64,000 bases of DNA from an uncultured Gammaproteobacteria bacterium (GCA_964362665.1 CAYIFB010000005.1:2556-66555); one strand, 5' to 3'; positions 17,716 through 50,352 are shown, counted from the first letter of the stretch. Made by a program: numbers and translations. Notes: generated from the letters alone by a model not told the origin.

Positions 17716-17726
17716 ATATTCATGAT

Positions 17727-22165: not shown

Positions 22166-22240
22166 GGGCCTGCCGCTCGTCACCCTATTGCTGTGCCGGG
22201 TTAAACGTCACATCAACAGGGTACCTGACTCGCGTCACCC
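22166..22240 (+). repeat. family A GC-rich repeat, copy 1
   Basis: Starts gggcctgccgctcgtcaccc and ends cctgactcgcgtcaccc. Contains the gggttaaacg core shared with copy 2. Confidence 0.6.
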
Positions 22241-22256
22241 GCTTGCTGTATGACTT

Positions 22257-23246
22257 ATGTTAACTAAAACAGTAGTTATCGGAAGTAATTCTTTCTCAGG
22301 AAGTGATTTTATTGATCTAATCCTCGAAAAAAAACTTTTTAATGTTATCGGCATAAGCCGTTCGCCGGAAAAGAGTGAAATCTTTCTTCCTTATAAAAGA
22401 CACGGGGTTTCCCGGTTTAAGTTTTTTCAAATGGATCTTAATCAAGATCTCAAAAAAATATGCAGATTACTGGATGATTTCAAACCCCAATATGTAGTTA
22501 ATTTTGCAGCCCAAAGTGAAGTTGCTCCTTCCTGGGAACATCCCGAGCATTGGTTTCAGACAAATACCGTGGCTTTGGCCGGTCTTATCAACTATTTAAG
22601 GTCAGCCGATTATTTGAAAAGATACTTGCATATTTCCAGTCCTGAAGTTTACGGCAGTTGTGAGGGAACTGTGACAGAGAAAGCGCCGCTCAATCCAAGT
22701 ACGCCCTACGCAGCTTCCAAAGCTGCTGCCGATCTGCTACTTCTGACATTCGTCAAAAATTTTAATTTTCCTCTTATTACGATCCGCTCAACAAACGTTT
22801 ACGGAGCTCACCAACAACTTTTTAAAATTATTCCCCGGTCGATCATTAATATCCGTAAGGGAATAAAAATTCATCTTCACGGGGGAGGCAAAGCCGTAAA
22901 GTCTTACATTCATATTCGGGATATTTCCCGGGGAGAACTTCTGGCTTTACAAAAAGGAAAAATCGGCGAGATTTACCATTTATCACCCGAGAGGGGAATC
23001 AGCGTTAAAAATGCAGTTAAATTAATCTGCGATAAAATGAAAGTGGATTTTGCCAAAGCCACGATTTCAGTTGGCGAAAGGCTAGGGCAGGACAGAGCCT
23101 ACGTCATTGATTCCTCTAAAATACGCCGCCTCGGTTGGAGCGAGCAGGTATCTTTAGATCAGGGTCTTAAAGATGCAATATCCTGGATTGATAAAAATTG
23201 GAAGGTGATTAAAAAGATGCCCTCAGATTATAAACATAGACCCTAA
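22257..23246 (+). CDS. NDP-hexose 4,6-dehydratase (CDP/dTDP-glucose 4,6-dehydratase family, extended SDR)
   Basis: 'VIGSNSFSGSDF' Rossmann motif, 'NFAAQSEV', 'SSPEVYG', 'YAASKAAAD' (YxxxK). Confidence 0.65.
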   Translation: MLTKTVVIGSNSFSGSDFIDLILEKKLFNVIGISRSPEKSEIFLPYKRHGVSRFKFFQMDLNQDLKKICRLLDDFKPQYVVNFAAQSEVAPSWEHPEHWFQTNTVALAGLINYLRSADYLKRYLHISSPEVYGSCEGTVTEKAPLNPSTPYAASKAAADLLLLTFVKNFNFPLITIRSTNVYGAHQQLFKIIPRSIINIRKGIKIHLHGGGKAVKSYIHIRDISRGELLALQKGKIGEIYHLSPERGISVKNAVKLICDKMKVDFAKATISVGERLGQDRAYVIDSSKIRRLGWSEQVSLDQGLKDAISWIDKNWKVIKKMPSDYKHRP

Positions 23247-23250
23247 AGAA

Positions 23251-23757
23251 ATGGCCTATTTAGCACTAAATCTATTTATTTTCATTATTTGTGGTATTTT
23301 ACATATTATAATTCACCGCTTTTTCGCCAAAAGAGGGATTTTGACTCTCAAAACTGCTTTAATATTTTTACCCGGATTATTTATTAGTATATATATTTCA
23401 GGTGTTTTACCCCGATCAGAAATCTGGTGGAATGTGTCGATTCCTTATTCAGGGGTGATTTTTTATATTCTGATGGTCGGTATACTTATCATATTTTATA
23501 CTACGCCATCTTTTTCAAGCATCAGCCCGTCAACCATGATCTTAAGACTGCTGAAAAAAAATGGGAAGATGTCATTCCGGAAATTAAAGGGATATTTTTC
23601 TGATGAGTCACTGATCGTCTTTCGATTGAAAGATCTTCTTCGGGACGGACTGATCTTTTTGAAAAAGGATAAATTCAGGGTAACCCCAAAGGGCAACAGG
23701 ATAATAAAAGTGATTGATATTTATAGAAAGATATTCGGCTGGAGGACAGGCGGATAA
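23251..23757 (+). CDS. small membrane protein with C-terminal winged-helix-like domain (paralog 1)
   Basis: Three to four N-terminal TM helices. C-terminal 'MSFRKLKGYFSDESLIVFRLKDLLRDGLIFLKKDKFRVTPKGNRII' looks like a winged helix-turn-helix. Confidence 0.4.
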   Translation: MAYLALNLFIFIICGILHIIIHRFFAKRGILTLKTALIFLPGLFISIYISGVLPRSEIWWNVSIPYSGVIFYILMVGILIIFYTTPSFSSISPSTMILRLLKKNGKMSFRKLKGYFSDESLIVFRLKDLLRDGLIFLKKDKFRVTPKGNRIIKVIDIYRKIFGWRTGG

Positions 23758-24257
23758 TGGATAATTTTATCATTATAAATACTTTAATCTCTATAACGGC
23801 CTACTTTATCTTACATATAATTATTCTGCGGAAAATTAATCAGAATGATATTTTTAAATGGCTGGTCTATGTCTATCTTCTGGCGGGATTTTTTCCTTTT
23901 CTTATCGGGTGGTGGGGAGGATTCATTTTCGGGTCACTAATCTCATGGATGTTTTATACTTTATTGGTTTTAATTTATGTGTTGGCTATACTTGGGGTTA
24001 TGGAGTCGTCAATAAGAATAAGACTATTAAAAGAGATTTACGATGCCAAAGACCACGGAATTGATCTGAAGCAAATATTAAAAAAATATAATAAAGATGT
24101 TATATTACACAAAAGACTGCAAAGATTTTTGTCTGCAGGAGAAATAAGCTTTTGTGAGGGAAAATATCAGCTGGAAAAAAAGTTTACGGCTTATACATTA
24201 CCGGATTTTGCAATCAGGATGATTTGGAAGTTATATACTTCTCAAACTAAAGTTTGA
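23757..24257 (+). CDS. small membrane protein with C-terminal winged-helix-like domain (paralog 2)
   Basis: Same architecture: TM helices, then 'IRIRLLKEIYDAKDHGIDLKQILKKY...RLQRFLSAGEISFCEGKYQL'. Start overlaps the previous stop. Confidence 0.4.
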   Translation: MDNFIIINTLISITAYFILHIIILRKINQNDIFKWLVYVYLLAGFFPFLIGWWGGFIFGSLISWMFYTLLVLIYVLAILGVMESSIRIRLLKEIYDAKDHGIDLKQILKKYNKDVILHKRLQRFLSAGEISFCEGKYQLEKKFTAYTLPDFAIRMIWKLYTSQTKV

Positions 24258-24976
24258 ATCAGTATAAATACAGGAGAAAAACTATGAACAATAAAGGCGT
24301 CAGCATCATTATCCCGGCTTATGATGAAGAGAAGAATATCCAGTCGGCAATTAAAAGCGCAGACAAGGCGGTGAGAGGCATATGTTCGAAATATGAGATT
24401 TTAGTCATTAATGATGGCAGTCATGATAGAACATGCCAAAAAGCAGAACTTGAAACCAAATCAAATAAATCGGTCAGAGTGATAAATTTAGTTCGTCACG
24501 AAGGTTATGGAGTGGCCATTAAAAAAGGTATAGAAGAAGCCAAAATGGAATATTTGACAGTTTTTCCGGGAGATAATGATATGGATTTAAATTCTCTCTC
24601 TGACCTTCTCAAAGCCATGGGGAGCGAGGATTTAGTCATTTCATATCTCGGTAAAAGCGATACGAGGAGGCTTTGGAGACGCATAGCATCCCTCACCTAT
24701 ATCGCGCTTCTTAGTACGCTTTTTAAACTGAAACTTGAGTACTATAACGGGCCGTTTATCTGCAGGAGCAAACTATTAAAAAATCTCCGTTTAATCTCAA
24801 CCGGCTTTACCGTTTGTGCAGAATTGAAAATAAGACTCATAAAAAAAGGATTTTCTTATAAAGAGATCCCCTTTGTGCACATAGGCCGGTTGTACGGAAA
24901 ATCTAAAGCTTTAACATTCCGATCCATAGCAAATGCATTGATTGTAACTTTAATAATGTGGAAAGATATTAAATAA
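24254..24976 (+). CDS. GT2 family glycosyltransferase (DPM1/GtrB-like polyprenyl-phosphate sugar synthase)
   Basis: 'VSIIIPAYDEEKNI', 'VINDGSHDRT', 'HEGYGVAIKKG', 'FPGDND'. Confidence 0.75.
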   Translation: MNQYKYRRKTMNNKGVSIIIPAYDEEKNIQSAIKSADKAVRGICSKYEILVINDGSHDRTCQKAELETKSNKSVRVINLVRHEGYGVAIKKGIEEAKMEYLTVFPGDNDMDLNSLSDLLKAMGSEDLVISYLGKSDTRRLWRRIASLTYIALLSTLFKLKLEYYNGPFICRSKLLKNLRLISTGFTVCAELKIRLIKKGFSYKEIPFVHIGRLYGKSKALTFRSIANALIVTLIMWKDIK

Positions 24977-25965
24977 TGAGAACTCTTGTGACAGGGGGAG
25001 CGGGCTTCATCGGCAGTCATTTGGTGGAAAGATTGCTTGCGGCCTGTCATGAAGTGGTGGTTTTAGATGATCTTTCAACCGGAAGGCTTGATAACTTAAC
25101 TTCGGTTAAAAACAATTCTTTATTAAAAATCCGGAAAATAAATATAACTGATCCGAAGATTGATTTAGACAACTATTTTAAGGGGGTTGATTTTGTATTT
25201 CATCTGGCCGCCCGAGCGGACGTGGTGCCTTCGATCGAAAAGCCTTTTGAGTATCACAATGTGAATGTGAACGGTACCGTGAAAGTTCTGGAAGCCGCGC
25301 GGCATGCAGGCGTAAAAAAATTCATATATACCGCTTCATCTTCATGTTATGGAATTCCAGAGAGCTATCCAACGAATGAATCAGCTAAAATTGATCCCCG
25401 ATACCCTTATGCATTGACAAAATTCCTGGCTGAACAATATGTGCTGCATTGGGGGAAGATTTATAAACTGCCGGTTGTCAGCCTTCGTTTATTCAATGTC
25501 TTTGGTCCGCGTAGCCGAACTAGCGGCACATATGGCGCAGTTTTTGGCGTATTTTTGGCTCAAAAGCTGGCAGGCAAGCCGTTTACGGTGGTGGGTGACG
25601 GAAGACAGAGCCGGGATTTTACTTATGTATCTGACACGGTAGACGCATTGGTTACAGCGGCGCAGTCACAATTAGCTGGTGAGATTTTCAATGTGGGATC
25701 GGGAAAACCACAAAGCGTTAACAGACTGGTGGGATTAATTGGCGGATCTGTAATTTATATTCCGAAGCGTCCCGGAGAGCCTGATTGCACCTGGGCTGAT
25801 ATTTCTAAAATTAAAAAAAAGCTTGAATGGCGCCCAAAAGTCAGTTTTGAGAAAGGGGTTGAAATACTTCTTCAACACATTGATTACTGGAAAAAAGCAC
25901 CCGTCTGGACACCGCGATCAATTGAGAAATCAACCAAGGAATGGTTTAAATATATGAGTGTCTAA
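24976..25965 (+). CDS. NAD-dependent nucleotide-sugar epimerase/dehydratase (GalE/WbpP-like)
   Basis: 'TGGAGFIGSHLVERLL', 'YALTK' catalytic YxxxK, 'DGRQSRDFTYVSD'. Confidence 0.8.
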   Translation: MRTLVTGGAGFIGSHLVERLLAACHEVVVLDDLSTGRLDNLTSVKNNSLLKIRKINITDPKIDLDNYFKGVDFVFHLAARADVVPSIEKPFEYHNVNVNGTVKVLEAARHAGVKKFIYTASSSCYGIPESYPTNESAKIDPRYPYALTKFLAEQYVLHWGKIYKLPVVSLRLFNVFGPRSRTSGTYGAVFGVFLAQKLAGKPFTVVGDGRQSRDFTYVSDTVDALVTAAQSQLAGEIFNVGSGKPQSVNRLVGLIGGSVIYIPKRPGEPDCTWADISKIKKKLEWRPKVSFEKGVEILLQHIDYWKKAPVWTPRSIEKSTKEWFKYMSV

Positions 25966-25973
25966 TATGACTA

Positions 25974-26106
25974 GAGTTTCGCGTTATTATATAGTTATTC
26001 CCAGAGGGTCCTGCCGCTCGTCACCCTGCTGTTGCGTCGGGTTAAACGCCGACAACAGCATGGCACCTGACTCGCGTCACCCACTCGATTTCTGTTAACG
26101 CGAGAC
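25974..26106 (+). repeat. family A repeat copy 2 with flanking terminal inverted repeats (MITE-like, fills the intergenic region)
   Basis: Core gggtcctgccgctcgtcaccc...cctgactcgcgtcaccc (26006-26082). Flanked by gagtttcgcgtta (25974-25986) and taacgcgagact (26095-26106), which are inverted repeats. Confidence 0.7.
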
Positions 26107-26113
26107 TTGTGAA

Positions 26114-27733: not shown

Positions 27734-27816
27734 CCGGCTCAATTGATTTATTTTCCTGCATTTATTAAGATACATAAGTTAAATATTCCCTTTACAAAAG
27801 TAAAACTATCTTTTAC

Positions 27817-29343: not shown

Positions 29344-29345
29344 AT

Positions 29346-29432
29346 ATATACCCTTCTTGCTCGATCCCGAGCTATAACGAGGGATAGTCTAGAAGGGTTT
29401 ATACTGATTCCAAATTGCAGTAAAAGAAGTAT
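29346..29432 (-). repeat. family C repeat copy 3 (inverted), overlapping the start codon of 29431
   Basis: Reverse complement reads atacttcttttactgcaatttggaatcagtataaacccttctagactatccctcgttatagctcgggatcgagcaagaagggtata. Confidence 0.65.
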
Positions 29433-31039: not shown

Positions 31040-31049
31040 ATAGAATAGA

Positions 31050-33090: not shown

Positions 33091-33096
33091 TAAAAA

Positions 33097-34104: not shown

Positions 34105-34122
34105 ACAAATGGGAATCTATTA

Positions 34123-34276
34123 GAAGTTTCGCGTTATTCAATTTCGGGTCCTGCCGTTCGCGTATCCCAAGATTCGTTTCTGAACGCTTGAGAAATAGAA
34201 TTAAAGCTAATAGAAACTCATCTTGGGAGCCTTCACTCGCGTCACCCGTTAATGATTAAGGAATACGCGAAACTCG
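34123..34276 (+). repeat. family A repeat copy 3 with terminal inverted repeats; its right TIR supplies the last codons of the minus-strand gene 34256-35626
   Basis: gaagtttcgcgtta (34123-34136) ... gggtcctgccgttcg ... cactcgcgtcaccc ... tacgcgaaactc (34265-34276). The internal segment differs from copies 1 and 2. Confidence 0.6.
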
Positions 34277-35626
34277 TAAGTATGTCCAAATTTGCCCGCA
34301 TGAATAGAAAATAAATAAATACAATAGAGGTTGAACTACTACAATAAGTCTTCCAAACTCTTCATAAGAAAAGAACACTGATAAGACTATTTGATAAAAA
34401 GAGATCATTCCGGCAAGAAAAAAGACCGCAAACTTGAGATTATTTCTCTTCTTAAAAAATAAAAATATACTCACAATGAAGATAGGAATGAAAATAAGCG
34501 TCAGATATTGAACTGTTTTGTAAATTTCATAAAGATAGCGGTAAACAAAATTAGCCAGTCCGACCGGGGGAATAACAGTTTTGATAAATTCACTCTTTTC
34601 CAGCATGGCAGACGGAATTTGACTGATAGAGCGGGTGAAAAAGCCGGTCAAATTAGAGGAAATGACCTTTGCGTTAAATCCTGAAAGACTATTTAATTTT
34701 TCGGTGTGACTATAAATCAGCGGATCATAATACTCTAAAAATGTATAAGGCATCGGAGGAAATTTTTTTTGCCGATAATCGGAAAGAGTTTCGTAAAAAT
34801 ACCGGAATTTTTTGGCATTTGTGATGGGTAAATTAAATTGCATTATTTTCCCGAGTAAATTTATATCAGTAATATGATTTATTCCCAGATATTTTCGCTG
34901 CACGAAGTTATATCTGACATAAGCCAATGGTAAAACAAGATATATTATCAGGAAAATAATAGCGAAACGAATTTTAGCCCGTTGATATTTATGGAGACAA
35001 TATATTAATAGAATTAGAAAAGGTAAACCTAAATAGATTGGTTTTAAGAGAATAAGCAGCGCCGAACAGAGAATAAGCAATAATTTATACGGAAAAGTTT
35101 TATAGGTTAACAGATTGACAGAAATATAAAAAATTAAAATCAGCAAGAATATCGTCAAGGATTCCGTGAGTAGAATTTTTTCCCAGGAAAAAATCATAAT
35201 ATTGCCGGATAAGAAAAGAGAACAAAGCAAAGCTTTTTGAGGATTAACTTTTATCTTTATCAGCGTAAAATAGATTAATAGAATGCTTAAAATGCCAAAA
35301 ATAGTTTGGAGAGAGGTAACAAGATAAGCACCGTTGTAAAATTCCGCTGATTTATATATAGGATTAAAATTTCCAGACAAGCTCATACCAAAATGTAAAT
35401 ATATAAGATAAAGCGGTGTCCTCTCGTCATTGAAGACCATGTTCAATATTTTGCCGTCAGTAAGTTTTCTTTCCAGTTTGTAATATCCGTCAGTATCGGC
35501 AGTTGTCACAGCTGAATGCGCGAAGAATAATGGTAAACGGATTACAAGAGATGCTAAAATAATAATCAAAAGATGATGGGTGAATTTCACTCCTTTTGGC
35601 ATTTTTTGAAATATTGTAAGATACAC
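34256..35626 (-). CDS. GT-C-like polytopic membrane glycosyltransferase (GTG start at 35626; alternative ATG at 35602)
   Basis: Multi-TM. N-terminal loop 'AHSAVTTADTDGYYKLERKL...FNDERTPLY' has an acidic motif. The last 7 codons (RVSRIP) lie in the repeat TIR. Confidence 0.5.
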   Translation of the reverse strand: MYLTIFQKMPKGVKFTHHLLIIILASLVIRLPLFFAHSAVTTADTDGYYKLERKLTDGKILNMVFNDERTPLYLIYLHFGMSLSGNFNPIYKSAEFYNGAYLVTSLQTIFGILSILLIYFTLIKIKVNPQKALLCSLFLSGNIMIFSWEKILLTESLTIFLLILIFYISVNLLTYKTFPYKLLLILCSALLILLKPIYLGLPFLILLIYCLHKYQRAKIRFAIIFLIIYLVLPLAYVRYNFVQRKYLGINHITDINLLGKIMQFNLPITNAKKFRYFYETLSDYRQKKFPPMPYTFLEYYDPLIYSHTEKLNSLSGFNAKVISSNLTGFFTRSISQIPSAMLEKSEFIKTVIPPVGLANFVYRYLYEIYKTVQYLTLIFIPIFIVSIFLFFKKRNNLKFAVFFLAGMISFYQIVLSVFFSYEEFGRLIVVVQPLLYLFIFYSCGQIWTYLRVSRIP

Positions 35627-35647
35627 TCATTCTAACAATGATTTAAT

Positions 35648-36802
35648 ATGATTCCAAGTTTTGATATTAAAAGACAAAATAAAACATTAAACCGTGAATT
35701 AAACAGGTCTATTCAAGAAGTATTAGACCGGGGTATCTTTATTTTAGGAGAGAAGGTGGAAGAATTTGAAGACAATTTTGCCTCATATCTCGGGGTAAAA
35801 TATGCAGTCGGGGTAGGGAGTGGGACTGATGCCCTGTCTTTAGCTCTTATTGCAATTGGAATTAAACCGGGAGATGAAGTGATTATGCCGGTAAATGCTT
35901 ACCCCACGGCTTTTGCAGTTACCGCGATTGGTGCCCTCCCCGTCCTTATCGATATTGATCCAGCTACCTTTAACATTAATCCTGATCTCATTGAACAGGC
36001 AATCACCAAGAGAACTCGTGCCATTCTCCCAGTCCACCTCTACGGACTCCCTTGTGATATGAATTCCATCATGAGGATTGCCAAAAAGCACAATCTGAAA
36101 GTCATAGAAGACTGTGCACAGGCACATGGGGCCACGCTGAGCGTGGCTATACCCGCGCTGAGCGCGGGGGCAGAGATTCGTTCACTTTCAACTGGTACTG
36201 ATTTAAATTGGAAAAAAGTGGGCAGCATTGGCGACGCGGGGTGTTTTTCGTTTTATCCGACAAAAAACTTGGGATGTTTTGGTGACGGGGGAATGGTGGT
36301 GACGAATAATAAAGAAATTTACGATAAAGTAAAGCTGCTCAGGATGTATGGGGAAAAGACACGATATAAAAGCGTAATACTCGGGCGAAACAGCAGACTG
36401 GACGAATTGCAGGCGGCAATCTTGTTGGTTAAACTTAAATATTTGGATAAATGGAATAAAAGGAGAAGGGAAATAGCTGAGTTGTATTTATCTCATATAG
36501 CCGGCCCCGCCGAGTCTACTGCCGTAGACTCTTTCTTTCACGTTTATCACTTATTTGTTATCCGGACAAAGAAACGAGACCAATTAAAAAAGCATCTGGA
36601 GGAAAAAGGAATACAAACCGCGGTTCATTACCCAACCCCAGTTCATCTGCAGGAGTCTTTCCGGTTTTTAGGATACAAAAAAGGAGATTTTCCTGTGGCA
36701 GAAAAGTTGGCCGATGAGATTTTGTCCATACCCATGTTTCCTGAATTAACCGAGTCGGAACTTATGGCGGTAGTTTCAGGAATAAATTCTTTCTTCGTAT
36801 GA
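35648..36802 (+). CDS. DegT/DnrJ/EryC1-family PLP-dependent sugar aminotransferase, carrying a roughly 25-aa in-frame insertion
   Basis: 'GVGSGTDALSLAL', 'AQAHGA ... VGSIGDAGCFSFYPTKNLG' (PLP-lysine region). The insertion 'TLSVAIPALSAGAEIRSLSTGTDLNWKK' sits between HGA and VGS, where family members normally have about 5 residues. Confidence 0.8.
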   Translation: MIPSFDIKRQNKTLNRELNRSIQEVLDRGIFILGEKVEEFEDNFASYLGVKYAVGVGSGTDALSLALIAIGIKPGDEVIMPVNAYPTAFAVTAIGALPVLIDIDPATFNINPDLIEQAITKRTRAILPVHLYGLPCDMNSIMRIAKKHNLKVIEDCAQAHGATLSVAIPALSAGAEIRSLSTGTDLNWKKVGSIGDAGCFSFYPTKNLGCFGDGGMVVTNNKEIYDKVKLLRMYGEKTRYKSVILGRNSRLDELQAAILLVKLKYLDKWNKRRREIAELYLSHIAGPAESTAVDSFFHVYHLFVIRTKKRDQLKKHLEEKGIQTAVHYPTPVHLQESFRFLGYKKGDFPVAEKLADEILSIPMFPELTESELMAVVSGINSFFV

Positions 36803-37389: not shown

Positions 37390-37428
37390 CACGCTCATCC
37401 TGAGCGATCGTAGAGAGTCGAAGGATTA

Positions 37429-39171: not shown

Positions 39172-39837
39172 AATATATTTAATTCCTTCAATCAGGATAT
39201 TGAATTTCGACCTGCGGGTTGTACCGGTATACCGGACGGGGACAGAGGTAATTTTCAGATGTCTATTCATGCTCCATATTGCCAGCTGTGTCTGGAAAAA
39301 AATACTTTGGGCGTTACACGAGGCGAGTAATGGTAAAATTTTAGCCCGCTTCATAAAGATTGTTCCCTGGGTGTCTGAAATAGTGAGCCCAAAAAATATT
39401 TTTGTAAGGTATGAGTGAAGGTAAGTTGCAGTTTTACGGAATAAACCGATTTGATAATGGGATTTTGAGTGTGTTTTTGAGCCGTAGATAAGATCAAATT
39501 CAGAGGAAAGTGCGAGCATTTGTTTCAAATCTTCAAAGCGGAAGGGATTATCAAGCCCGTTGAGATAAACATACGGAAATTTGGCTTTTTGAATCCCTTT
39601 TTTTAAAGCTGTACCGATATTGGTGGAATTTAGATAAGTAATTTGGGAGAATTTTCTGCACAACTTTTGGCAAAGTAAAAGAGTATTATCAGAACTTCCA
39701 TTTTCGCAAAGGATAATTTCAAAACTCCTGATATTATTTTCACGAGACAAATAATCGAGAAATTGCAGAATGGCTTTTTCCAGCAGTGACTCTTCATTTT
39801 TTACAGGTATGACAAGAGACAAATCAATTTTTCTCAT
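39139..39837 (-). CDS. GT2 family glycosyltransferase (DPM1-like)
   Basis: 'LSLVIPVKNEE', 'ILCENGSSDNT', 'IGTALKKG'. The start overlaps the end of the upstream GT-C gene by 14 nt. Confidence 0.7.
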   Translation of the reverse strand: MRKIDLSLVIPVKNEESLLEKAILQFLDYLSRENNIRSFEIILCENGSSDNTLLLCQKLCRKFSQITYLNSTNIGTALKKGIQKAKFPYVYLNGLDNPFRFEDLKQMLALSSEFDLIYGSKTHSKSHYQIGLFRKTATYLHSYLTKIFFGLTISDTQGTIFMKRAKILPLLASCNAQSIFFQTQLAIWSMNRHLKITSVPVRYTGTTRRSKFNILIEGIKYILEALAEKYIF

Positions 39838-41635
39838 AAATGAAAGTGGTGGGCGAGCTGTAAACTTGCTTTAATTTCCATTTAGTTATCAGTTCAGGTT
39901 TTGGCATATTTGTATCACGACTGTACAAAACATAGGACACGTTGTATTTTTTAAAAATTGCCGGTGCATCGGTATCATTTTTGGGTGAGAAAACCAGATA
40001 GGCATCCTCCTTTTTTTTGGTAGAAGCATAGGTATTTGCGGGATGACCATAGACAACTTTGTCATGGGTAAAAGCCGGAATCAGATTGCCTATAAAGCCT
40101 CCGGCAAGAACAACTGACTTATCAGGGGAGTTTTTGTCGAGCCACTTGAAAGCCTTCATGATGTCGTTGGGAACGTAAATATTATAAAAGTTTTTGGTAA
40201 ACTGCAAAGGTTCATTGGTCAGGGAAAAATAAAAGGGAACAAGAGAATACAGGAGTATGGCGACTAAAATTAAAGTGGAAATTATTTTCTGATGTTTGGT
40301 AAAAATTGTTTCCAGATACATGGCTCCAAATCCTGCTAAAATACCGATGGGAATATAGGTGGCAGTTTCCAGAAAATAAACATCACCCAACTGGGGCAGA
40401 AAAAATCTGAATAAGGGAATTCCCAGAATGGGAAAAATAGCCCATCCCAAGAGTATTAAGGAAAGAAAAGTTAATTTCTTGAACATCACTTTCAGTCCGA
40501 TTACCATAAGTATAAAAAATGGACCAAGTGATAAAAGATACTCCCATAATTTGAAAGAAAAAGTGAATTTTACGGCTACTTTATTGTATCCCGACCAGGG
40601 AAAGCCGGAGCGGGAAATGTAAAAAATATATACAAGAGACAATCCGGCTAGCGCGACGTAGACTGCGATGAGCATTAACTTATTTAAGAATAGCGGGTCC
40701 TGTCTCAATATTCGCGGGTCCTGCCGCAAGTTTCTCTCCCGCCAGTACTCGCCTCCGATTGTCGGTTGCGTGCTGTCGGGATCCCTTCTTCTTGCGTCAC
40801 CCGCTCTGATAAAATTTATTATCTGATTAATTAGAACTATCAAAACTGCCGTACCCAGTCCGCCTAAGAGGCTAAGCATGGTGGCAAAATACACAAAACC
40901 CGCCAAAAACCCCAACAAACCTGCCAAGAGACAATAACGGAGTAAATTTTTTTCGAGAGCAATAACAAGAAAATAAACAGACCAAACAGCCAGAATCGTA
41001 CTCAAAAGATGATGGGGAATATAGGTAATTCTCATGATGGGATCAAGTCTGGTCCAGAAAGAGAGAAACTGTTGAAACTCATATTGTCCGTTATTAAACT
41101 TTAAAAACCAGAAGCTATTATTGATTAGAAGAAATAAACAAGTCCAGACGAAATACTTAGGGCTCGTTCCTGAATAATCCTTACGATTATTTAGGATTAC
41201 GGCCCTATGTGGCGTATCCAAAATGTCAACGTTATTTTGGAGTACGCCCTTTTTACTGCCAAAGATTTTATGGGCCAGAAAAAAAGAAGACAAAATCAGG
41301 ACGAACCCGAGAATAATTCTTGAGAAAAAGTAAACGTTGACAAGGGACAGATGAAACCATTTCGCCAGGTGTCCTGTGAACGCGTAGAAAGTATGGACAA
41401 AGGCAGGGGTAAAGCTTTCAGGGGTCATGTAGGTTGTCAAAAGCCAGTGTCCGTCAAACCCCTGGCGCATCAGGGAAAGGTAATAAAAATAATCATCAGG
41501 ATGGTTATGCACCAAAGGAAATACGGTTCCGGCAGGGGTATGTTTCAACCGGGTAAGGTCGGGAATGATGGAAAGTAAAACAAAAGAAGCAGCTAGCAGG
41601 GCCAAAAGAAAGACTGGATTTTTTACTCTTTTCAT
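39824..41635 (-). CDS. GT-C-like membrane glycosyltransferase, paralog family member 3, containing two in-frame repeat-element insertions
   Basis: Family motifs 'HNHPDDYFYYLSLMRQG', 'RITYIPHHLL' and C-terminal 'GNLIPAFTHDKVVYGH'. Contains the family A repeat (40716-40802, translated RAGDARRRDPDSTQPTIGGEYWRERNLRQDP) and the family B repeat (41156-41249, translated DTPHRAVILNNRKDYSGTSPK). Confidence 0.6.
   Translation of the reverse strand: MKRVKNPVFLLALLAASFVLLSIIPDLTRLKHTPAGTVFPLVHNHPDDYFYYLSLMRQGFDGHWLLTTYMTPESFTPAFVHTFYAFTGHLAKWFHLSLVNVYFFSRIILGFVLILSSFFLAHKIFGSKKGVLQNNVDILDTPHRAVILNNRKDYSGTSPKYFVWTCLFLLINNSFWFLKFNNGQYEFQQFLSFWTRLDPIMRITYIPHHLLSTILAVWSVYFLVIALEKNLLRYCLLAGLLGFLAGFVYFATMLSLLGGLGTAVLIVLINQIINFIRAGDARRRDPDSTQPTIGGEYWRERNLRQDPRILRQDPLFLNKLMLIAVYVALAGLSLVYIFYISRSGFPWSGYNKVAVKFTFSFKLWEYLLSLGPFFILMVIGLKVMFKKLTFLSLILLGWAIFPILGIPLFRFFLPQLGDVYFLETATYIPIGILAGFGAMYLETIFTKHQKIISTLILVAILLYSLVPFYFSLTNEPLQFTKNFYNIYVPNDIMKAFKWLDKNSPDKSVVLAGGFIGNLIPAFTHDKVVYGHPANTYASTKKKEDAYLVFSPKNDTDAPAIFKKYNVSYVLYSRDTNMPKPELITKWKLKQVYSSPTTFIYEKN
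40716..40802 (-). repeat. family A repeat copy 4, inserted in-frame inside CDS 39824-41635; a partial duplicate lies at 40693-40706
   Basis: gggtcctgccgcaagtttctctcccgccagtactcgcctccgattgtcggttgcgtgctgtcgggatcccttcttcttgcgtcaccc. About 90% identical to 50148-50234. Confidence 0.65.
41156..41249 (-). repeat. family B 95-bp palindromic repeat copy 2, inserted in-frame inside CDS 39824-41635
   Basis: Reverse complement of 2206-2299 with one mismatch. Confidence 0.75.
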
Positions 41636-41669
41636 GTATTATGTACTTGATTATTTTGAATTATATTAT

Positions 41670-43405: not shown

Positions 43406-43406
43406 A

Positions 43407-44081: not shown

Positions 44082-44086
44082 TAATT

Positions 44087-45289
44087 ATGGAAATAAAAAT
44101 TTCTAATCCCTTTATCGGCAAAGAGGAAATAAACGCCGTTATCAAAGTGTTAAAAAGCGGAAATTTAGCCAGCGGAAACGTGGTTTCCGAGTTTGAAAGA
44201 GAATTTAAAGAGTATATCGGCGTCAAACATGTTGTTGCAGTATCAAGCGGTACTTCAGCATTACTTATTTCATTACTCGCCCTCGGAATTGGCCCGGGTG
44301 ATGAGGTGATTACTACTGCTTTTACTTTCCGGGCTACGATTGAAACCATTATTTTTTGCGGTGCCCTCCCCAAACTTGTTGATATTGATCCTTCTACCTA
44401 TAACATTAATCCTGATCTCATTGAACAGGCAATTACCAAGAGAACCCGTGCCATTCTCCCAGTCCACCTCTACGGACTCCCTTGTGATATGAATTCCATC
44501 ATGAGAATTGCCAAAAAGCACAATCTGAAAGTCATAGAAGACTGTGCACAGGCGCATGGAGCGTCTATCGCAGCCTCTGAGGTCGGTATGACTTTTTTGC
44601 GCACCTCCCAAACTCCCCCGATGCTATATCGGGGTCGAGGCCGTGGGCGTGCTCAAAAAGCATACCTCCCCGCGGCTGCTGAAGTTTTGCAAAAAGTAGG
44701 CAGTATAGGCGACGCGGGGTGTTTTTCGTTTTACGCTACCAAAAATATGACGACAGGTGAGGGGGGAATGATTACCACCAATAATGATGAATTATTTCAA
44801 AATATACTTCGTATCATAAAACATGAGGGGAAATTAAATATTGATTTATTAGATATACATTTCAGGATGACCGATATCCAGGCAGCGTTAGGACGGGTGC
44901 AATTAAAAAGATTAGACAGACTAAACAGGATAAGAATTAAAAATGCCAATTTTTATAAGCAAAAATTAAGTACGGTGAAAGGTTTGATCTGCCCGAAGGT
45001 GCCGGAAGGCAAAAAACATGTTTTTCATCAGTATACGGTGAAAATCAATGATAATTATTCTCTCTCCCGAGAGATGCTGTTAAAGAAATTAGAACAAGCT
45101 GGAATTCAAGCGAGAATCTATTATCCTCAGCCAATTCATAAATTATCATTATTTACAGGGTTATTCACCGGAAAAAATTTATCCCGGTCAGAACAAGTGG
45201 CCAAAGAGGTTTTATCACTTCCCATACATCCCAAACTTAATATAAAACAATTAAAGTCGATCGTTAACTGCCTTAAAAACGATAAATAA
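44087..45289 (+). CDS. DegT/DnrJ/EryC1-family sugar aminotransferase (WbpE-like), carrying a roughly 45-aa in-frame insertion
   Basis: 'AVSSGTSALLISL', 'AQAHGA ... VGSIGDAGCFSFYATKNMTTGEGG'. Insertion 'SIAASEVGMTFLRTSQTPPMLYRGRGRGRAQKAYLPAAAEVLQK'. A 160-nt block at 44401-44561 is near-identical to 35971-36131. Confidence 0.8.
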   Translation: MEIKISNPFIGKEEINAVIKVLKSGNLASGNVVSEFEREFKEYIGVKHVVAVSSGTSALLISLLALGIGPGDEVITTAFTFRATIETIIFCGALPKLVDIDPSTYNINPDLIEQAITKRTRAILPVHLYGLPCDMNSIMRIAKKHNLKVIEDCAQAHGASIAASEVGMTFLRTSQTPPMLYRGRGRGRAQKAYLPAAAEVLQKVGSIGDAGCFSFYATKNMTTGEGGMITTNNDELFQNILRIIKHEGKLNIDLLDIHFRMTDIQAALGRVQLKRLDRLNRIRIKNANFYKQKLSTVKGLICPKVPEGKKHVFHQYTVKINDNYSLSREMLLKKLEQAGIQARIYYPQPIHKLSLFTGLFTGKNLSRSEQVAKEVLSLPIHPKLNIKQLKSIVNCLKNDK

Positions 45290-47018
45290 CTGCCTGAGGA
45301 TTATTGTAGACAGGTTTTAAAAAGGGATAGACCATCTCTAAGCTCTTTCCTTTGGATTTTTCTTTTTCCTGGACGCTGACGAAGATATATTTGACACGGT
45401 TATTTTTCAGGAAGATTTCCGCTTCCCGTACCGGCATTTTGCCTGTATAAAATCTATCAACCAGACGCTGTTTTTCCTCATAATTGACGGTATTTGATTG
45501 GCCAAAGAAGACGGTATTGCCGGAGTAGGCGGGAATAAAATTGCCGGCGGTGATTTCAGCCAAAACCACATCACTGCGAATTGTGTTATTTTTCAGCCAG
45601 CGTATGCCATCCATCCAGGTTCTCAGAGGATACATGGTTTGGGGAGGATAGGGGACAGCCGGAATATTGGCCCGTACTCTTTGGGTAATGAAATTGGTCT
45701 GCCAGGATATACTAACTTTCATCATAAAGAAATTTAATGCAAGATAACAAATAACAAATAACAGATAACAGAAACAGAAAAAATGCTTTACCGACAAATC
45801 TTTATATTTGAAACTCACGATAAATTCCCAAACTTGTTGGAAAAAGTAAACAGCCAGAAGTCCTAAAGGAATGAAAAGCCCGGTTTGGGTGAAGCGGAGC
45901 GGGCTTTGCTCTTTGATATAGGTAAAAAGTATGGCAAAAAGAAAAGTCATCAAAATCCAAAAAGTGAGAGGATGAAATTTGCTGTCTCTTTTGACAAGTG
46001 AGATGAAAATACCAAAAAGAGCCAGAAAAAAGACAGGACCGGTTCCCAAAAGATATTCCCAAAAAGGAATGAGCATAGGATGGGTCTGGTGGAAAATTAC
46101 CAGAGATGACCAGGGAGGTACGCGGGTGATAAAAAATAAGTAAATTAAAGATGGTGCACTAAGAATTATGAATAATATCAGCTTGCTGAGGTCGGGTAAG
46201 AAATTTGTCGTATCTGCAAGTCGTTCGTCTCGATTGAATAGGGACTCACTCTCCCTTCGGTGCAGATAACGCCAAATTTTTACCCTCCCCGCAAGCTTAA
46301 TGAAGATGATTGTCATAATGATTCCGTAAAGAGTCATTAAACTTGGAGGAAACACTAAGCCTACGGCATTGCCTAAAATTATTAGCGGTATCAATTGTTT
46401 CAATGATAAATTGTTAATTTTTTTTATTACCAACCAATACAGCAGGAAAAACGATCCGACCTGGCCGAATAAGATGTGGGGGATGAAGGTGATTCTTTGC
46501 ACCGCGTCGATATTCGACCACCATTCCATGAACCGGCCGACCTGAAACGCTCCATTATTTTCCATGATCAGCCTGGGAAAACTGCCTGATGAAAGAATTA
46601 TTAAAAAGGCTAAAACCTGCCAGAAAAACTTTTTAAAATATACTTTGGTCAGGAAACAAATCATAATTAAAAGTAGAGGAGACAGAATAATCCTGCCCAA
46701 CTGATAAGCTGAATTAGGACTTAGTCCCATCGTTTTACCAAGTAGTCCTAAAACGACATAAAATTCCTGAATGAGTGATCCCTGGTGTGGTTCGCTCGTG
46801 AAACGCTCCAGGGCAGTCAGGCGTCCTTCAGTGCCCTGTCTGATTTTGGAGAGGTAAAGATTATAATCAGGCCAGTAGAAATTATGTTCCAGAATAAATT
46901 CACGGTTAGGGTCTCCCAGGCTTTTGGACTTCGATAATTCAAAAATCGTGGGATAAAAAGAGATTGCCAAAAAAACGATTATTAGAGAAGTAAAAATGAT
47001 AGTTTTTACTGAATTCAT
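45273..47018 (-). CDS. GT-C-like membrane glycosyltransferase, paralog family member 4
   Basis: 'EHNFYWPDYNLYLSKIRQG', 'RITFIPHILFGQ', C-terminal 'GNFIPAYSGNTVFFGQ...FYTGKMP'. Start set at MNSVKT, because the upstream 28 codons of the longer ORF are a repeat element. A GC-rich segment at 46200-46290 may be another in-frame insertion. Confidence 0.6.
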   Translation of the reverse strand: MNSVKTIIFTSLIIVFLAISFYPTIFELSKSKSLGDPNREFILEHNFYWPDYNLYLSKIRQGTEGRLTALERFTSEPHQGSLIQEFYVVLGLLGKTMGLSPNSAYQLGRIILSPLLLIMICFLTKVYFKKFFWQVLAFLIILSSGSFPRLIMENNGAFQVGRFMEWWSNIDAVQRITFIPHILFGQVGSFFLLYWLVIKKINNLSLKQLIPLIILGNAVGLVFPPSLMTLYGIIMTIIFIKLAGRVKIWRYLHRRESESLFNRDERLADTTNFLPDLSKLILFIILSAPSLIYLFFITRVPPWSSLVIFHQTHPMLIPFWEYLLGTGPVFFLALFGIFISLVKRDSKFHPLTFWILMTFLFAILFTYIKEQSPLRFTQTGLFIPLGLLAVYFFQQVWEFIVSFKYKDLSVKHFFCFCYLLFVICYLALNFFMMKVSISWQTNFITQRVRANIPAVPYPPQTMYPLRTWMDGIRWLKNNTIRSDVVLAEITAGNFIPAYSGNTVFFGQSNTVNYEEKQRLVDRFYTGKMPVREAEIFLKNNRVKYIFVSVQEKEKSKGKSLEMVYPFLKPVYNNPQAVIYRF

Positions 47019-47144
47019 ACGAGATCCTTCGACGCGTTTCGGGACGTACCGTATGGAACATCCCTTCGCTTGCTCAGGATGACATCGCCTTCGGCGAGTC
47101 ACTTGACCATGATAATATTATAGCTTAACATAAGGCACGAATAT

Positions 47145-48179
47145 ATGACTTTTCTTTCAATCATCATACCTGTTTACAATTCTCAAAATTCGATCACCCC
47201 TCTTTTAAATTCCCTGATTTCCGCCAGGAAGGTGAACTTTAAGGAAATTGAACTGATCCTGGTGGACGACGCGTCACAGGATAATTCTTTGAAACTTATA
47301 GAGAAATGGCTTACCTTAAAGGGTGACACCTTTAAAGGTGTGAAGACTTTGAGTCTGAAGAAAAATTCCGGTCCGGCCAAAGCCCGTAATATCGGAGTCA
47401 AATACGCCAAGGGAAAGGTAGTATTATTTCTAGATTCTGATGTAGAAGTTTATAGTAATACTCTTTTTGAAATAATAAGATCCTTTAAAAATGATCCGGA
47501 TCTTCATGCTTTGACAGGGGTCTGGGATAAAAAGCAGAAAGGACATAAATTATTCCAGAAATTCAAAGCCTTGAGAGACTGGAGCTATTGGATTAATGAA
47601 CGCGATCCCCGCAATTATTATTATTTATTTTCGACCCGCATCGCCGCCATCGACAGGCAGTTATTTTTAAGGCTTGGCGGGTTTGATACGACTTATAAAG
47701 CCGCTCTGGTTGAAGATATCGAACTGACTTATAGAATTGCCAAAAGGTATGCGGTGGTTTTCGACCCGAAAGCCATTGTCCGTCATGAATTTGAGGATTT
47801 TGGACCAATTTTCCGGAAATATTTCTGGAGATCATACTACTGGAGCCGGATTTACCGCGAAAGGAAAAAATTTGATCCTGTCGCAACTACCGGTAAGGAA
47901 GCAGTGACCACAATATCGGCAGGAGGCTTGGTAGCAGTATCGGCATTGATGTTATTTAGTTCTTTAAGTCACTTAAATTATTTACAATACGTATTTCAAA
48001 CTACTTTCTACCTGCTACTGATTATTCATCTCTGGGGGGTACGCAAATTTCTCTGGTTTGTCTTTCAGGAAGAGGGAATTATTTTTGCTTTTTATTCTTT
48101 TTTGACAGGTATTGCTTTATACCTGGCGATTCTTTCCGGGGCTGCTTATTCATTGTTGTGGAACAACCGTCGGAATTAA
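47145..48179 (+). CDS. GT2 family glycosyltransferase with C-terminal membrane helices
   Basis: 'LSIIIPVYNSQNSI', 'LILVDDASQDNS', 'PAKARNIGVKYAKG', 'FLDSDVEV' (DxD). Confidence 0.7.
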   Translation: MTFLSIIIPVYNSQNSITPLLNSLISARKVNFKEIELILVDDASQDNSLKLIEKWLTLKGDTFKGVKTLSLKKNSGPAKARNIGVKYAKGKVVLFLDSDVEVYSNTLFEIIRSFKNDPDLHALTGVWDKKQKGHKLFQKFKALRDWSYWINERDPRNYYYLFSTRIAAIDRQLFLRLGGFDTTYKAALVEDIELTYRIAKRYAVVFDPKAIVRHEFEDFGPIFRKYFWRSYYWSRIYRERKKFDPVATTGKEAVTTISAGGLVAVSALMLFSSLSHLNYLQYVFQTTFYLLLIIHLWGVRKFLWFVFQEEGIIFAFYSFLTGIALYLAILSGAAYSLLWNNRRN

Positions 48180-50147
48180 TTTTTGGGAAGGAAGAAGATT
48201 TAGGGCCGACGGAGATGAGTTTTCCAGATCGAGGGTGGGATTTTCAATTACCTTAACTTTTTTCAACTTCAGACTTCCGGTGGCAGTTATGGCTTCAGGA
48301 AATTGGGAGAGTTCATCTTCAATCTTTTTCATGTCACCCGAATCAAGTGGAATGAGGGATGCGGCGGTTTGAAGCTCTTTATAAGCTTCATCATACTTTT
48401 TTTGAGAGCGAAGCGCGACAGCCAGATCAAAGTGGGCATTAGCCAGGTCGGGTTTGAGATAGATTGCCTGGCGAAAGAGCATTTCCGCATCCGCATATTT
48501 TTTCAGATTAAGGTAAAGTACGCCTAAAGCAATCCTGTTTTTGGGAGACAGTGGATCCAGGGTGATTTTCTGCTGCTGGCTTTGGACGGCGAAGTTATCT
48601 GCGCCTGCTGCGTATCCGATGATATTGGAATAGGTTTTAGTCAGGTTGTCCCAGTTGATAACATTTGTGCGGAAAAGATTGACTGAAACACGGGCTTCAT
48701 CAATTGCCTGCTGGACCAGTCGGGGAATATTTTGTTGATCTTCAGCTGTGGGGTTCTTTTTAGATGCCAGAGCATTGGCCAGGGCCAAATTGGTTTGGGA
48801 GAGGGCATTGTGGTAGCGGTCGATATAGGGGTTAAGTTTTATGGCTTGCCTTTGGTAATTATAGGCAAGTGTTCCCTGATTATTGATCAGAGAATCCAAT
48901 GATTTTTTAAAATTCATTTCGGCGAAGTATGCTTTTCCTCCAAAAAAAATAACTAGAGAAAATATTATCAGAGAGGGTAAAATTAAGAGATATTTTAAAA
49001 ATCCCAGACTGGAAAAGTCTATTTCAAATGACGGTTTTTTACTCCCGGAAACAGCTAAAAGTATGATGGCCGTCGTCAAAAGTACCATACTGGTGGGAAG
49101 GATTATCTGCAGAAAAAGTATGGCGACTGCCATAATTTTGAAGGAATAAAAATTAGCGTTTTCATGATTTTTTATCAGAGCCTCTCCAAACAATTGTTTC
49201 ACTGCTTTAATAATAATTAAGACATACATTAAACCTGCAAATAATCCGTATTCAGTCAAAAGATTCAGAAGAAATGATGAGGAAGAGGTAAAAACTATAT
49301 TCCAGACAGGACTGCTGTTTATCGTCATGGGCTTGGAAAGTGTGAAAGCGGTAATAAAATTTGCAGGGCCAATTCCCAAGGCAAGCGTCCTGATGTTTTT
49401 TAAGGTTTCGAGCATTATAGACCAGCCGAAATTAAGGGGCAGAAGAATAGGCGACTGGTTGGTAGCAAGATGTATGGAAGTGATAATTGTAGCCGTTGTG
49501 ATGAGAAGTGCCGCGCTACCATAAAAAAGATAAAGATAACCCCAGGACCCTGATTGCATTATTTGGTTTTTTTCTTCACCATCTGAAATGAAATATTTTA
49601 AAAGGCAATAGATGGGATGAATCCCTAAAACGGCGAGAAATGTAACAGTTGAGAGGAGGCTTCCGGCCGGCGTTTGGATACTTTTGGGTAAAATTCCCAA
49701 ATAAAGAAAAATAAGATATAAAGATAATAAGACAGCATCAACCAAAAGAATCTGCATAAGGGTCGATTTATCATTTTCATCGACGGCATACGTCAAAAAA
49801 AGATAAAACAAAAAACCTTCAACAATAGTTGTAGTTGCAAGCGGGGTAGTGAGCGAGATAGCAAGATTTGGGGATTGGAAGAGGGTTGAGGCGATGACAA
49901 AGCCGGTGAGAAGCGAAAAGGGATATAAATAAATGTCTTTGATGACCATTAATTTCTGCTCTGTGATTATTCTGACCGACATCAGGATAAAGCCGACTGA
50001 GATAAATAAAGCCAGAAGAGCCATTTTGTTGTACTCATAATATTCAGGCACGATCTGAAGAAAAAATAAGGGGAAGAGAAAAACAAAGAGGAAAGTGGAA
50101 TATTTAATTATTTTTTTGATTGACATATATTTCGCAATGTCTATCAC
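48150..50147 (-). CDS. O-antigen ligase / Wzy_C-domain polytopic membrane protein with C-terminal TPR repeats (PglL/WaaL-like oligosaccharide transferase or polymerase)
   Basis: About 12 TM helices with a large loop of the Wzy_C type. The C-terminal roughly 250 aa hold TPR-like repeats ('YADAEMLFRQAIYLKPDLANAHFDLAVALRSQKKYDEAYKELQTA'). Confidence 0.6.
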   Translation of the reverse strand: MIDIAKYMSIKKIIKYSTFLFVFLFPLFFLQIVPEYYEYNKMALLALFISVGFILMSVRIITEQKLMVIKDIYLYPFSLLTGFVIASTLFQSPNLAISLTTPLATTTIVEGFLFYLFLTYAVDENDKSTLMQILLVDAVLLSLYLIFLYLGILPKSIQTPAGSLLSTVTFLAVLGIHPIYCLLKYFISDGEEKNQIMQSGSWGYLYLFYGSAALLITTATIITSIHLATNQSPILLPLNFGWSIMLETLKNIRTLALGIGPANFITAFTLSKPMTINSSPVWNIVFTSSSSFLLNLLTEYGLFAGLMYVLIIIKAVKQLFGEALIKNHENANFYSFKIMAVAILFLQIILPTSMVLLTTAIILLAVSGSKKPSFEIDFSSLGFLKYLLILPSLIIFSLVIFFGGKAYFAEMNFKKSLDSLINNQGTLAYNYQRQAIKLNPYIDRYHNALSQTNLALANALASKKNPTAEDQQNIPRLVQQAIDEARVSVNLFRTNVINWDNLTKTYSNIIGYAAGADNFAVQSQQQKITLDPLSPKNRIALGVLYLNLKKYADAEMLFRQAIYLKPDLANAHFDLAVALRSQKKYDEAYKELQTAASLIPLDSGDMKKIEDELSQFPEAITATGSLKLKKVKVIENPTLDLENSSPSALNLLPSQKLIPTVVPQQ

Positions 50148-50234
50148 GGGTCCTGCCGCAAGTTTCCCTCCCGCCAGTACTCGACTCGGATTCTCGTTTG
50201 CGTGCTGTCGGGATCCCTTCCTCTTGCGTCACCC
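50148..50234 (+). repeat. family A repeat copy 5, immediately upstream of the start of 48150-50147
   Basis: gggtcctgccgcaagtttccctcccgccagtactcgactcggattctcgtttgcgtgctgtcgggatcccttcctcttgcgtcaccc. Confidence 0.65.
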
Positions 50235-50352
50235 GCTTATCCTTAATTATTATCTAAAACGACGGGATTCTCAAGGAGGGGATTTCAGGTATCAGGTGTC
50301 AGGTATCAGGTGTCAGAACTAAAACCTATAACCTAAAACCTGCAACCTTACA

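Follow-up and report, generated by a model that had tools for sequence, protein, structure and literature searches.

What are the five short GC-rich sequences that recur between 22 and 50 kb in a 64,000-nt stretch of DNA deposited as an uncultured Gammaproteobacteria bacterium (GCA_964362665.1, CAYIFB010000005.1:2556-66555; this whole stretch is called the window below)? [quoted passage not shown] Comparisons with close relatives and with copies from other genomes showed that the element has moved recently, is tolerated in ORFs and keeps a conserved fold. The closest relatives of the neighbouring proteins belong, by their NCBI names, to Candidatus Gottesmanbacteria of the candidate phyla radiation (CPR; Patescibacteria), with identities of 65% for protein P0002 and of 85-90% for P0007 and P0009, the bacterium itself being ultra-small and Gottesmanbacteria-like.

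The five copies and their recent movement

A covariance model, R1, for which no copies but those of other genomes were used, was applied to the complete window with its filters turned off. It gave five matches and no more, all on the plus strand, with E values from 4.7e-10 to 1.4e-4, the next match having an E value of 4.2, and the coordinates given for the five copies in the preliminary description were all confirmed. The copies and the parts belonging to them are the following.

22166-22240, plus strand: core of copy 1, 75 nt, sharing its subtype with copy 2 and having the 5' end GGGCCTGCCGC (one T missing); R1 E value 1.4e-4
25967-26113, plus strand: inserted block of copy 2 (left arm, spacer, core, spacer, right arm), delimited against the empty sites of L130 and L131, boundaries approximate
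About 25972-25986 and 26096-26109, plus strand: left arm (TAGAGTTTCGCGTTA) and right arm (TAACGCGAGACTTG) of copy 2
26006-26082, plus strand: core of copy 2, 77 nt; R1 E value 6e-6
34122-34277, plus strand: composite of copy 3, with left arm 34122-34139 (AGAAGTTTCGCGTTATTC), core, and right arm 34260-34277 (GGAATACGCGAAACTCGT)
34146-34247, plus strand: core of copy 3, 102 nt, with an AU-rich tip and the basal module alone in common with other copies; R1 E value 8e-5
40695-40715, plus strand: remnant of an older 5' end (GGGTCCTGTCTCAATATTCGC), directly upstream of copy 4, translated ...RILRQDP
40716-40802, plus strand: core of copy 4, 87 nt, antisense and in-frame in ORF 39824-41635 (minus strand); R1 E value 4.7e-10
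50148-50234, plus strand: core of copy 5, 87 nt, 93% identical to copy 4, between two minus-strand genes

Both termini had been described as common to all copies. The 3' motif GCGTCACCC is indeed exact in all five, and the 5' motif is one T short in copy 1 (GGGCCTGCCG), which was for this reason detected by the model only. With up to one mismatch, the 5' motif GGGTCCTGCCG occurs four times in the window against 0.42 expected, a count reached in none of 100 shuffles. Copies 4 and 5 are nearly the same sequence, copies 1 and 2 are 79-86% identical, and copy 3 has only its ends in common with the rest. The copies have a GC content of 45-64% in a window of about 39% GC with positive skew throughout, and they lie 3.8-9.4 kb apart, each interval holding several genes. 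The core ends themselves are inverted only over GGGT/ACCC plus CGC/GCG. The extra inverted repeats reported for copies 2 and 3 are real: GTTTCGCGTTA stands at 25976-25986 and again at 34126-34136, and its inverted counterparts lie at 26096-26106 and 34263-34273, as part of arms of 13-14 bp with the form AGTYTCGCGTTA. The same arms recur in the related contig L127; copies 4 and 5 are without them, and the flanks of copy 1, which is placed between an alcohol dehydrogenase-like gene (stop 22126) and an epimerase gene (ATG 22257), resemble a decayed form of the copy 2 arms.

Syntenic contigs of close Gottesmanbacteria relatives (L127-L131, neighbouring proteins 85-90% identical) were compared with the window. 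In L130 (neighbour protein 90% identical) and L131 (85%), nothing is inserted at the copy 2 site, and the epimerase stop lies 1 nt from the next start (…TAAaGTGATTAAAAAAAG…) as against about 147 nt in the window; in L127, an unrelated repeat fills this site. L127 has no insertion at the copy 3 site: its two convergent genes overlap there by 7 nt, and those of the window lie 151 nt apart. Reciprocally, L127, L128 and L129 carry a copy between the genes of a thiamine pyrophosphate (TPP) enzyme and a short-chain dehydrogenase (adh_short), which in the window are separated by 4 nt, and L130 carries one between a PfkB-like gene and an epimerase gene, a site that is empty in L127 and holds a different repeat in the window. 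These copies of the relatives are of one subtype with window copies 1 and 2, and the differences keep the pairing (CGC/GCG to CAC/GUG; G-C to U-A in the upper stem). Since orthologous sites are empty, and reciprocal sites filled, in such close relatives, the element, which forms hairpins, does not code and is present in several copies, has moved recently, and in this the preliminary description is upheld.

At the copy 2 and copy 3 sites, the inserted DNA consists of arms, spacers and core, and not of the core alone. The proposed MITE character stands as regards the small size, the lack of an ORF and the arms acting as the ends of a unit; the 75-102-nt segments are not the whole mobile unit, the inserted blocks at these two sites being about 140-160 nt long. 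An imperfect 7-nt sequence, TNANATG, was found on both sides of two filled sites and singly in the empty sites, so that a 7-bp target-site duplication in the window would be possible but unproven.

Copy 4 is a genuine in-frame insertion, as had been suggested. It is antisense in ORF 39824-41635, which encodes a 603-aa membrane protein, and with the peptide AGDARRRDPDSTQPTIGGEYWRERNLRQDP a loop that lies between hydrophobic segments gains 29 codons from it, the total element-derived insert being 36 codons. Two distant homologs, P0003 (44% identical) and P0004 (39%), are without this stretch. The closer homolog P0002 has a longer insert at the same place, and its DNA (L126) shows the same 3' junction, GCGTCACCC followed by gctc, together with a degenerate 5' end, GAATCCTGTCGC. 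The remnant in the window is orthologous to this degenerate 5' end, and adjoins a complete copy closely similar to copy 5. The shared 3' junction and the surviving old 5' end therefore indicate that the copy 4 site was occupied before the lineages split and was later overwritten or converted. In L037, from an unrelated genome, a full copy is likewise preceded, at a distance of 10 nt, by a truncated 5' end.

Gene ends in the window are remodelled by the element: one gene (34256-35626) has a new C-terminus, another (39824-41635) has the 36-codon insert, and three start codons are preceded by new spacers. The claim that the right arm of copy 3 encodes the C-terminal RVSRIP of gene 34256-35626 proved correct, with the stop codon (34256-34258) in the spacer between core and right arm; this minus-strand gene ends in …CGQIWTYLRVSRIP in the window and in …CGQLWLFLKKTSKLAQ in L127, and the new tail is therefore encoded by the right arm. 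Copy 5 is antisense to, and upstream of, the gene of a membrane protein containing TPR repeats (ORF 48150-50147). It had been thought to abut the start codon; GTG 50147 is probably not the start, the likely one being ATG 50126 (MSIKKIIKY...), 21 nt from the element. Two gene labels were also not upheld by Pfam, which gave no match for the supposed GT-C protein (39824-41635) and TPR repeats only for the supposed Wzy_C protein (48150-50147). No sign of a regulatory role for the element was seen in the window, no terminator-like site is present at copy 5, and nothing was found pointing to the phase-variable expression or the paralog diversification that had been envisaged. A promoter-like site (TTGAGA, 17-nt spacer, AATAAT; a consensus match only) lies on the minus strand at 50246-50274, just upstream of copy 5; transcription from it would give the mRNA of the TPR membrane protein a 5' leader consisting of the reverse complement of copy 5.

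Other repeats occur in the same setting. An unrelated 96-nt repeat, 99% identical and inverted between 2204-2299 and 41156-41251, forms two strong hairpins in each copy (DNA fold z = -10); its second copy is a further in-frame insert (about residues 129-160, KGVLQNNVDILDTPHRAVILNNRKDYSGTSP) in the host protein of copy 4, absent from P0002-P0004. A third family, with copies at 16956-17046, 17722-17812 and 29344-29432 (inverted) that are 85-89% identical, has the hairpin TATACTCTTCT...AGAAGAGTATA and lies in intergenic spacers; at the position of its copy 29344-29432, L130 carries an element of the GGGTCC type and L127 is empty. In L127, the orthologous spacers at 6940-7167 and 10995-11128 hold yet other short palindromic repeats, e.g., GTCATTGCGAGGAG...CGACGAAGCAATC and GATGCTGAAACAAGTTCAGCATGAC / GTCATCCTGAATTTATTTCAGGATC. 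The same stop-to-start spacers appear to be hot spots for several element families.

A conserved fold across bacterial phyla

The family had been presented as concentrated in a glycosylation island, in a lineage very different from that of Rickettsia. In the window, all five copies do fall within the glycosylation part (22-50 kb) of a sugar-modification cluster, which by Pfam comprises epimerases/dehydratases, DegT aminotransferases, GT2 and PMT_2 glycosyltransferases, and acetyl- and methyltransferases, and the relatives carry copies at other sites of the same cluster. The same core, however, was found under at least 10 phylum labels and is private neither to this lineage nor to the island. 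Two scans were made, one with the two exact ends 55-85 nt apart over one genome per GTDB species (at least 120 loci) and the other with the same ends and a 24-53-nt gap over metagenomes (at least 120 further loci). Labels in the first scan included Omnitrophota, many classes of Patescibacteria, Planctomycetia (Planctomycetota), Solirubrobacterales and other Actinomycetota (complete chromosomes among them), Acidobacteriota, Krumholzibacteriota, Nitrospiria, Auribacterota, Bacillota, and delta- and gammaproteobacteria; Saccharibacteria are also among the carriers (e.g., L013, L042 and L177). These labels are the depositors' and some bin labels may be wrong; host-typical genes surround and contain the element in contigs of 35% and of 70% GC. 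Carrier genomes range from 33% to 74% GC, and the mean GC content is 66% for the element versus 43% for the loci.

Among the 124 exact-end matches in L001-L120, 103 had C at position 12 and closed ends on folding; 21 failed this combined test of C at position 12 and a closed terminal stem, 15 of the 124 having no C at that position. Most of these 21 were structure-less, chance-like sequences in high-GC genomes. The model R1 gave 89 matches in the first 100 loci, and 12 of the copies inspected lay outside the exact-end member set, 10 of them with ends differing from the search pattern. The metagenome scan yielded a continuum of shorter forms down to about 50-60 nt, and hairpin length across phyla was 49-105 nt. 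No blastn match was obtained in plasmids, and only four matches, all chance-like, in IMG/VR phage contigs. The literature, searched by exact sequence and keyword (subscription journals lie outside this coverage), returned no description of the element, only primers and unrelated papers. Two composite copies stand head-to-head, 36 nt apart, at 2856-3129 of an Omnitrophota contig (L003), and L047 holds at 3362-3400 a 38-nt internally deleted derivative (GGGTCCTGCCGCTCGGTCCACCGCGTCTCGTGCCACCC) of a full copy about 650 nt away.

The constant part comprises 21 bases in two halves, the 5' half GGGUCCUGCCGC preceded by C and the 3' half GCGUCACCC followed by G. In the basal module that they form, the 5-bp stem CGGGU/ACCCG comes first, then CCU as a 3-nt bulge, one G-C pair, the mismatch C.U, and the stem CGC/GCG. 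Above this base are stems of free sequence that stay complementary, and the tip is hypervariable, accepting almost any sequence. In a hand-checked alignment of 15 copies (A4), 81% of the cells were paired and 20 of the 31 pairs showed double changes, with a covariation of 0.34 compared with 0.15 in shuffled alignments (none of 500 reached the observed value) and 0.03-0.11 with the partners slid. A larger alignment of 89 model-aligned matches (A5) had 85.8% pairing and a covariation of 0.47 versus 0.14, figures that lean towards the model by which it was aligned. Copies that had not been selected by the pattern showed compensatory changes even in the otherwise fixed CGC/GCG stem (CAC/GUG, CGG/CCG, CGU/AUG), and the C..U mismatch beside it becomes U..C or a G-C pair. 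An internal helix GU[G/C/A]CUC : UGCG[C/G/U]GC is present in roughly half the copies, among them numbers 4 and 5 of the window; its third pair covaries, and the U.G wobble and U.C mismatch stay constant. The conserved wobble favours the plus strand as the RNA strand; by folding energy the minus strand is the more stable of the two, by 3.9 kcal/mol on average. The conserved asymmetries indicate that one strand is read in folded form. Compensatory change does not by itself prove that the fold has a function, because palindrome correction or matched terminal repeats can also yield it.

In the spaces between genes, copies directly follow stop codons or lie a short way ahead of start codons; others are in-frame in protein loops and linkers, in either orientation. 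With unambiguous ORF calls, the upstream gene was co-oriented with the element in 26 of 32 cases, at a distance of 2-48 nt, versus 13 of 30 for the downstream gene (Fisher p = 0.003); the upstream genes are unrelated to one another. Essential proteins are among the hosts. For instance, the E2 acyltransferase of Solirubrobacterales has two copies, one sense (…AAGPVGGQAPAGEDVASFSEPAPRHP…) and one antisense (…GDAGAGVPRGAEAAEQPSTVGDAAAAGP…), between its lipoyl, E3-binding and catalytic domains, and the linker of DnaX (DNA polymerase III tau/gamma) carries in-frame an antisense copy in L033, a sense copy elsewhere along the linker in L190, and in L145, a contig of 42% GC, a sense copy of 57 nt. Copies in the linkers of E2 dihydrolipoamide acyltransferase were noted in L034, L056, L078, L079, L007, L024 and L083 (Actinomycetota) and in L132, L155, L182 and L240. 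All the E2 genes inspected (L007, L024, L034, L056, L083) hold one sense and one antisense copy, both in-frame, and the orthologous antisense copies of L034, L056, L078 and L079 keep their pairing through compensatory changes.

More than 90% of the copies have C directly to the left of the core and G directly to its right, and the flanks extend the stem by at least 5 bp in 118 of 219 copies and by at least 7 bp in 65, with up to 19 bp of flank pairing. Identical cores were found in quite different perfect palindromes (L032, L050). As a test of whether the arms are duplicated coding DNA, their overlap with upstream ORF ends was checked, and almost no case of such an overlap was seen. In Omnitrophota, the arms form a MITE frame (GGTCGTGTCTCAATTTGG…) with terminal inverted repeats of about 19 bp and the core inside; in other phyla, the arms are lineage-specific (e.g., AAGTYTCGCGTTA, as opposed to GGTCGTGTCTCAATTTGG) or lacking. 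An outer MITE consisting of arms only, i.e., empty of the core, was sought in the fetched loci, and the sole match was coding sequence. Direct duplications of 8-9 bp flank three of the Omnitrophota composites: AGGAAATT in L115, CGCCGTCC/CGCCGTCT in L035, and GAAACTGTG in L097. On this basis, the core travels in ordinary, duplication-making MITEs in at least one phylum.

Nature of the core

The composites may be moved in trans by transposases that make staggered cuts. The core would be a separate and older entity, recognised as a folded single strand of DNA or RNA, that inserts into the dyad centres of palindromes, those of MITEs included, or is retained there. That the core is an entity of its own at palindrome centres is suggested by the fact that the centre is conserved across phyla and the arms are lineage-specific. 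As a tentative extension, which we hold with distinctly less confidence than the identification of the copies as mobile DNA, the 21-nt basal module could be what a machinery common to many phyla recognises on a folded single strand, and the core could represent a new class of element, either a mobile element that seeks hairpin tips and is a parasite of palindromes and MITE centres, or a mobile structured RNA functioning in mRNA 3' ends, instead of a by-product of ordinary terminal repeats bound by a transposase.

Several observations weigh against regarding the copies as a MITE-like mobile element. No clean target-site duplication occurs in the window, where the TNANATG repeats are imperfect; no transposase or recombinase was found among the 40 window ORFs scanned with Pfam; and no protein family recurs within 3-8 kb of about 220 copies, the largest neighbour clusters, E2 and DnaX, being hosts of the element and not mobilisers. 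Core-only copies lie in long perfect palindromes without target duplication, and, unlike in ordinary MITEs, conservation across phyla is higher in the centre than in the terminal repeats. In addition, compensatory change can arise without selection, and the co-orientation of the upstream gene is equally compatible with a role in the upstream mRNA and with a bias at the DNA level. Solo 5' ends, which would be a sign of a full-length parent, were looked for; none was convincing and none was followed by an ORF.

This co-orientation leads to the first of two serious alternatives, which we consider rather unlikely: the core would be primarily a cis-acting structured RNA in the untranslated 3' ends of mRNAs, for instance a hairpin for protein binding, processing or stabilisation; selection on this RNA would maintain the base module and its pairing, and the mobility and insertion into ORFs would be side effects. 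Besides the short gap to a co-oriented upstream gene, with no downstream bias, this explanation would account for the conserved U.G wobble, U.C mismatch and 3-nt bulge, the swap from C.U to U.C, the retention of orthologous copies with compensatory changes in Saccharibacteria and in actinobacterial genes, and the placing of the L013 element between a stop codon and a canonical terminator. However, window copies 4 and 5 and many copies in ORFs are antisense to the surrounding gene, the minus strand is on average the better-folding one, the upstream genes are unrelated, no Rfam family matches, and genomes with neighbouring proteins as close as 85-90% identity differ in whether they have a copy.

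A further alternative, by analogy with attC sites or with repetitive extragenic palindromic (REP) sequences and their doublets (REPINs), is that the core is a recombination site of folded single-stranded DNA, which an HUH or tyrosine enzyme would insert without target duplication at the tips of hairpins or palindromes on the lagging-strand template. The conserved base with a variable terminal structure and the asymmetries that tell the two strands apart would be expected of such a site, as would the core-only copies without duplication exactly at the dyad of perfect palindromes of up to 19 bp, the same core in different palindromes (L032, L050), and the truncated 5' ends 10-13 nt upstream of full copies in two phyla. 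The five window copies are also all on the strand with positive GC skew, but five of five on one strand is weak (p = 1/16). No associated recombinase or HUH gene was detected among the window ORFs or in the neighbourhoods of the copies, the attC consensus and the REP motif GTAG are absent from the window copies, and arms and spacers are part of the inserted unit at both window sites that have empty-site controls. We therefore regard this alternative as doubtful, and less probable than a structured RNA. Chance, low-complexity GC-rich sequence or ancestral coding sequence is a highly improbable source of the similarity, even though some exact-end matches in high-GC actinobacterial genomes have no hairpin, and it is refuted by the motif count that no shuffle reached, by R1 E values down to 5e-10 with no other match in 64 kb, by homologs without the ORF segment, and by covariation above that of shuffles; the GC content of the element (66% versus 43% for the loci) also speaks against it.

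If the five copies do belong to a mobile element with the conserved core proposed here, one small element has spread through very different phyla while keeping a two-part signature of 21 bases and a free-form tip. We know of no described MITE, REP or RPE family that does likewise, and a conserved partner, either an enzyme or an RNA-binding protein, should therefore exist. The element would also show how the streamlined genomes of the CPR get remodelled, and elsewhere it has become part of flexible linkers of essential proteins (E2, DnaX). As regards annotation, copies cause spurious ORF extensions and "hypothetical" peptide segments; R1 could be used to mask the copies.

Gene setting and known systems

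Two further features of the window were noted besides the five copies. The DegT aminotransferase genes at 35648-36802 and 44087-45289 share 203 nt at 94% identity (35930-36132 versus 44360-44562) and 60 nt at 85% identity (36208-36267 versus 44686-44745), which suggests a recent gene conversion or duplication between these paralogs. A 1303-aa protein (ORF 52055-55966) contains about 190 residues of Thr-Pro repeats (TPTPTxTPT...), encoded on the minus strand at 52580-53155 by DNA with a 6-nt periodic repeat.

Several known structures were considered and set aside. Searches against Rfam 15 gave no match for the window copies, either at the gathering thresholds or at E <= 10, and 17 loci from other phyla gave tRNAs only. 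The element is not an intrinsic terminator, since, among 38 copies whose arms reach 7 bp or more, 5 or more T occur within the 9 nt beyond the arm in 4 only. Inspection by eye showed that GGGUCCU with GGG(N)RCCC gives a topology like that of the hepatitis delta virus (HDV) ribozyme, but the 0-4 nt to the 3' strand of P2 leave no P4 or J4/2, and the Rfam HDV models do not match. A kink-turn was rejected, likewise by eye, as the bulge is without tandem G.A pairs.

The comparison with integron attC sites extends to a conserved paired base with extrahelical asymmetries, a terminal structure of variable length, and a usual position just downstream of, and co-oriented with, an ORF. The R''/R' consensus RYYYAAC/GTTRRRY is absent, the element ending in GGGTCC preceded by C and in CACCC followed by G; unlike attC sites, the copies are separated by multi-gene intervals and not by cassettes, and filled and empty sites differ by the element alone and not by a gene plus its site. 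The likeness to REP and REPIN sequences lies in a GC-rich extragenic hairpin near gene 3' ends, a doublet-like symmetry with a 4-nt outer motif (GGGT...ACCC versus GTAG...CTAC in REP), and core-only copies without target duplication. REP sequences differ between species, whereas the base module described here is common to many phyla. The outer motif is GGGT and not GTAG, no Y1_Tnp match was obtained among the window ORFs scanned, and no gene like those of REP-associated tyrosine transposases (RAYTs) is present in the window or recurs near the copies.

Yeast mitochondrial GC clusters are GC-rich palindromic mobile elements in an AT-richer genome, sometimes in-frame in a gene; with a different host, sequence and scale, they offer an analogy to the present element and not a relationship. 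The bacterial MITEs that form hairpins in transcripts include Correia/NEMIS, ERIC, RUP and BOX (reviewed in PMC10969869). Like these, the present element is small, has no ORF, has inverted ends and many copies, shows insertion polymorphism, and is found at intergenic or co-transcribed sites. The difference is that its arms vary between lineages and its central core is conserved across phyla, with no parent insertion sequence found among the scanned window ORFs or near the copies; known MITE families are species- or genus-specific and most conserved at their terminal repeats.

The likeness to RPEs raised in the preliminary description is apt for behaviour, since both are short palindromic repeats dispersed over a small genome and tolerated in-frame, where they add a peptide segment, as seen here in copy 4, E2 and DnaX; it is behavioural only. 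To our knowledge, RPEs are confined to Rickettsia and relatives and are AT-rich like their hosts. In contrast, the element in the window is GC-rich, is found in many phyla, and combines a short conserved base module with a freely varying rest.

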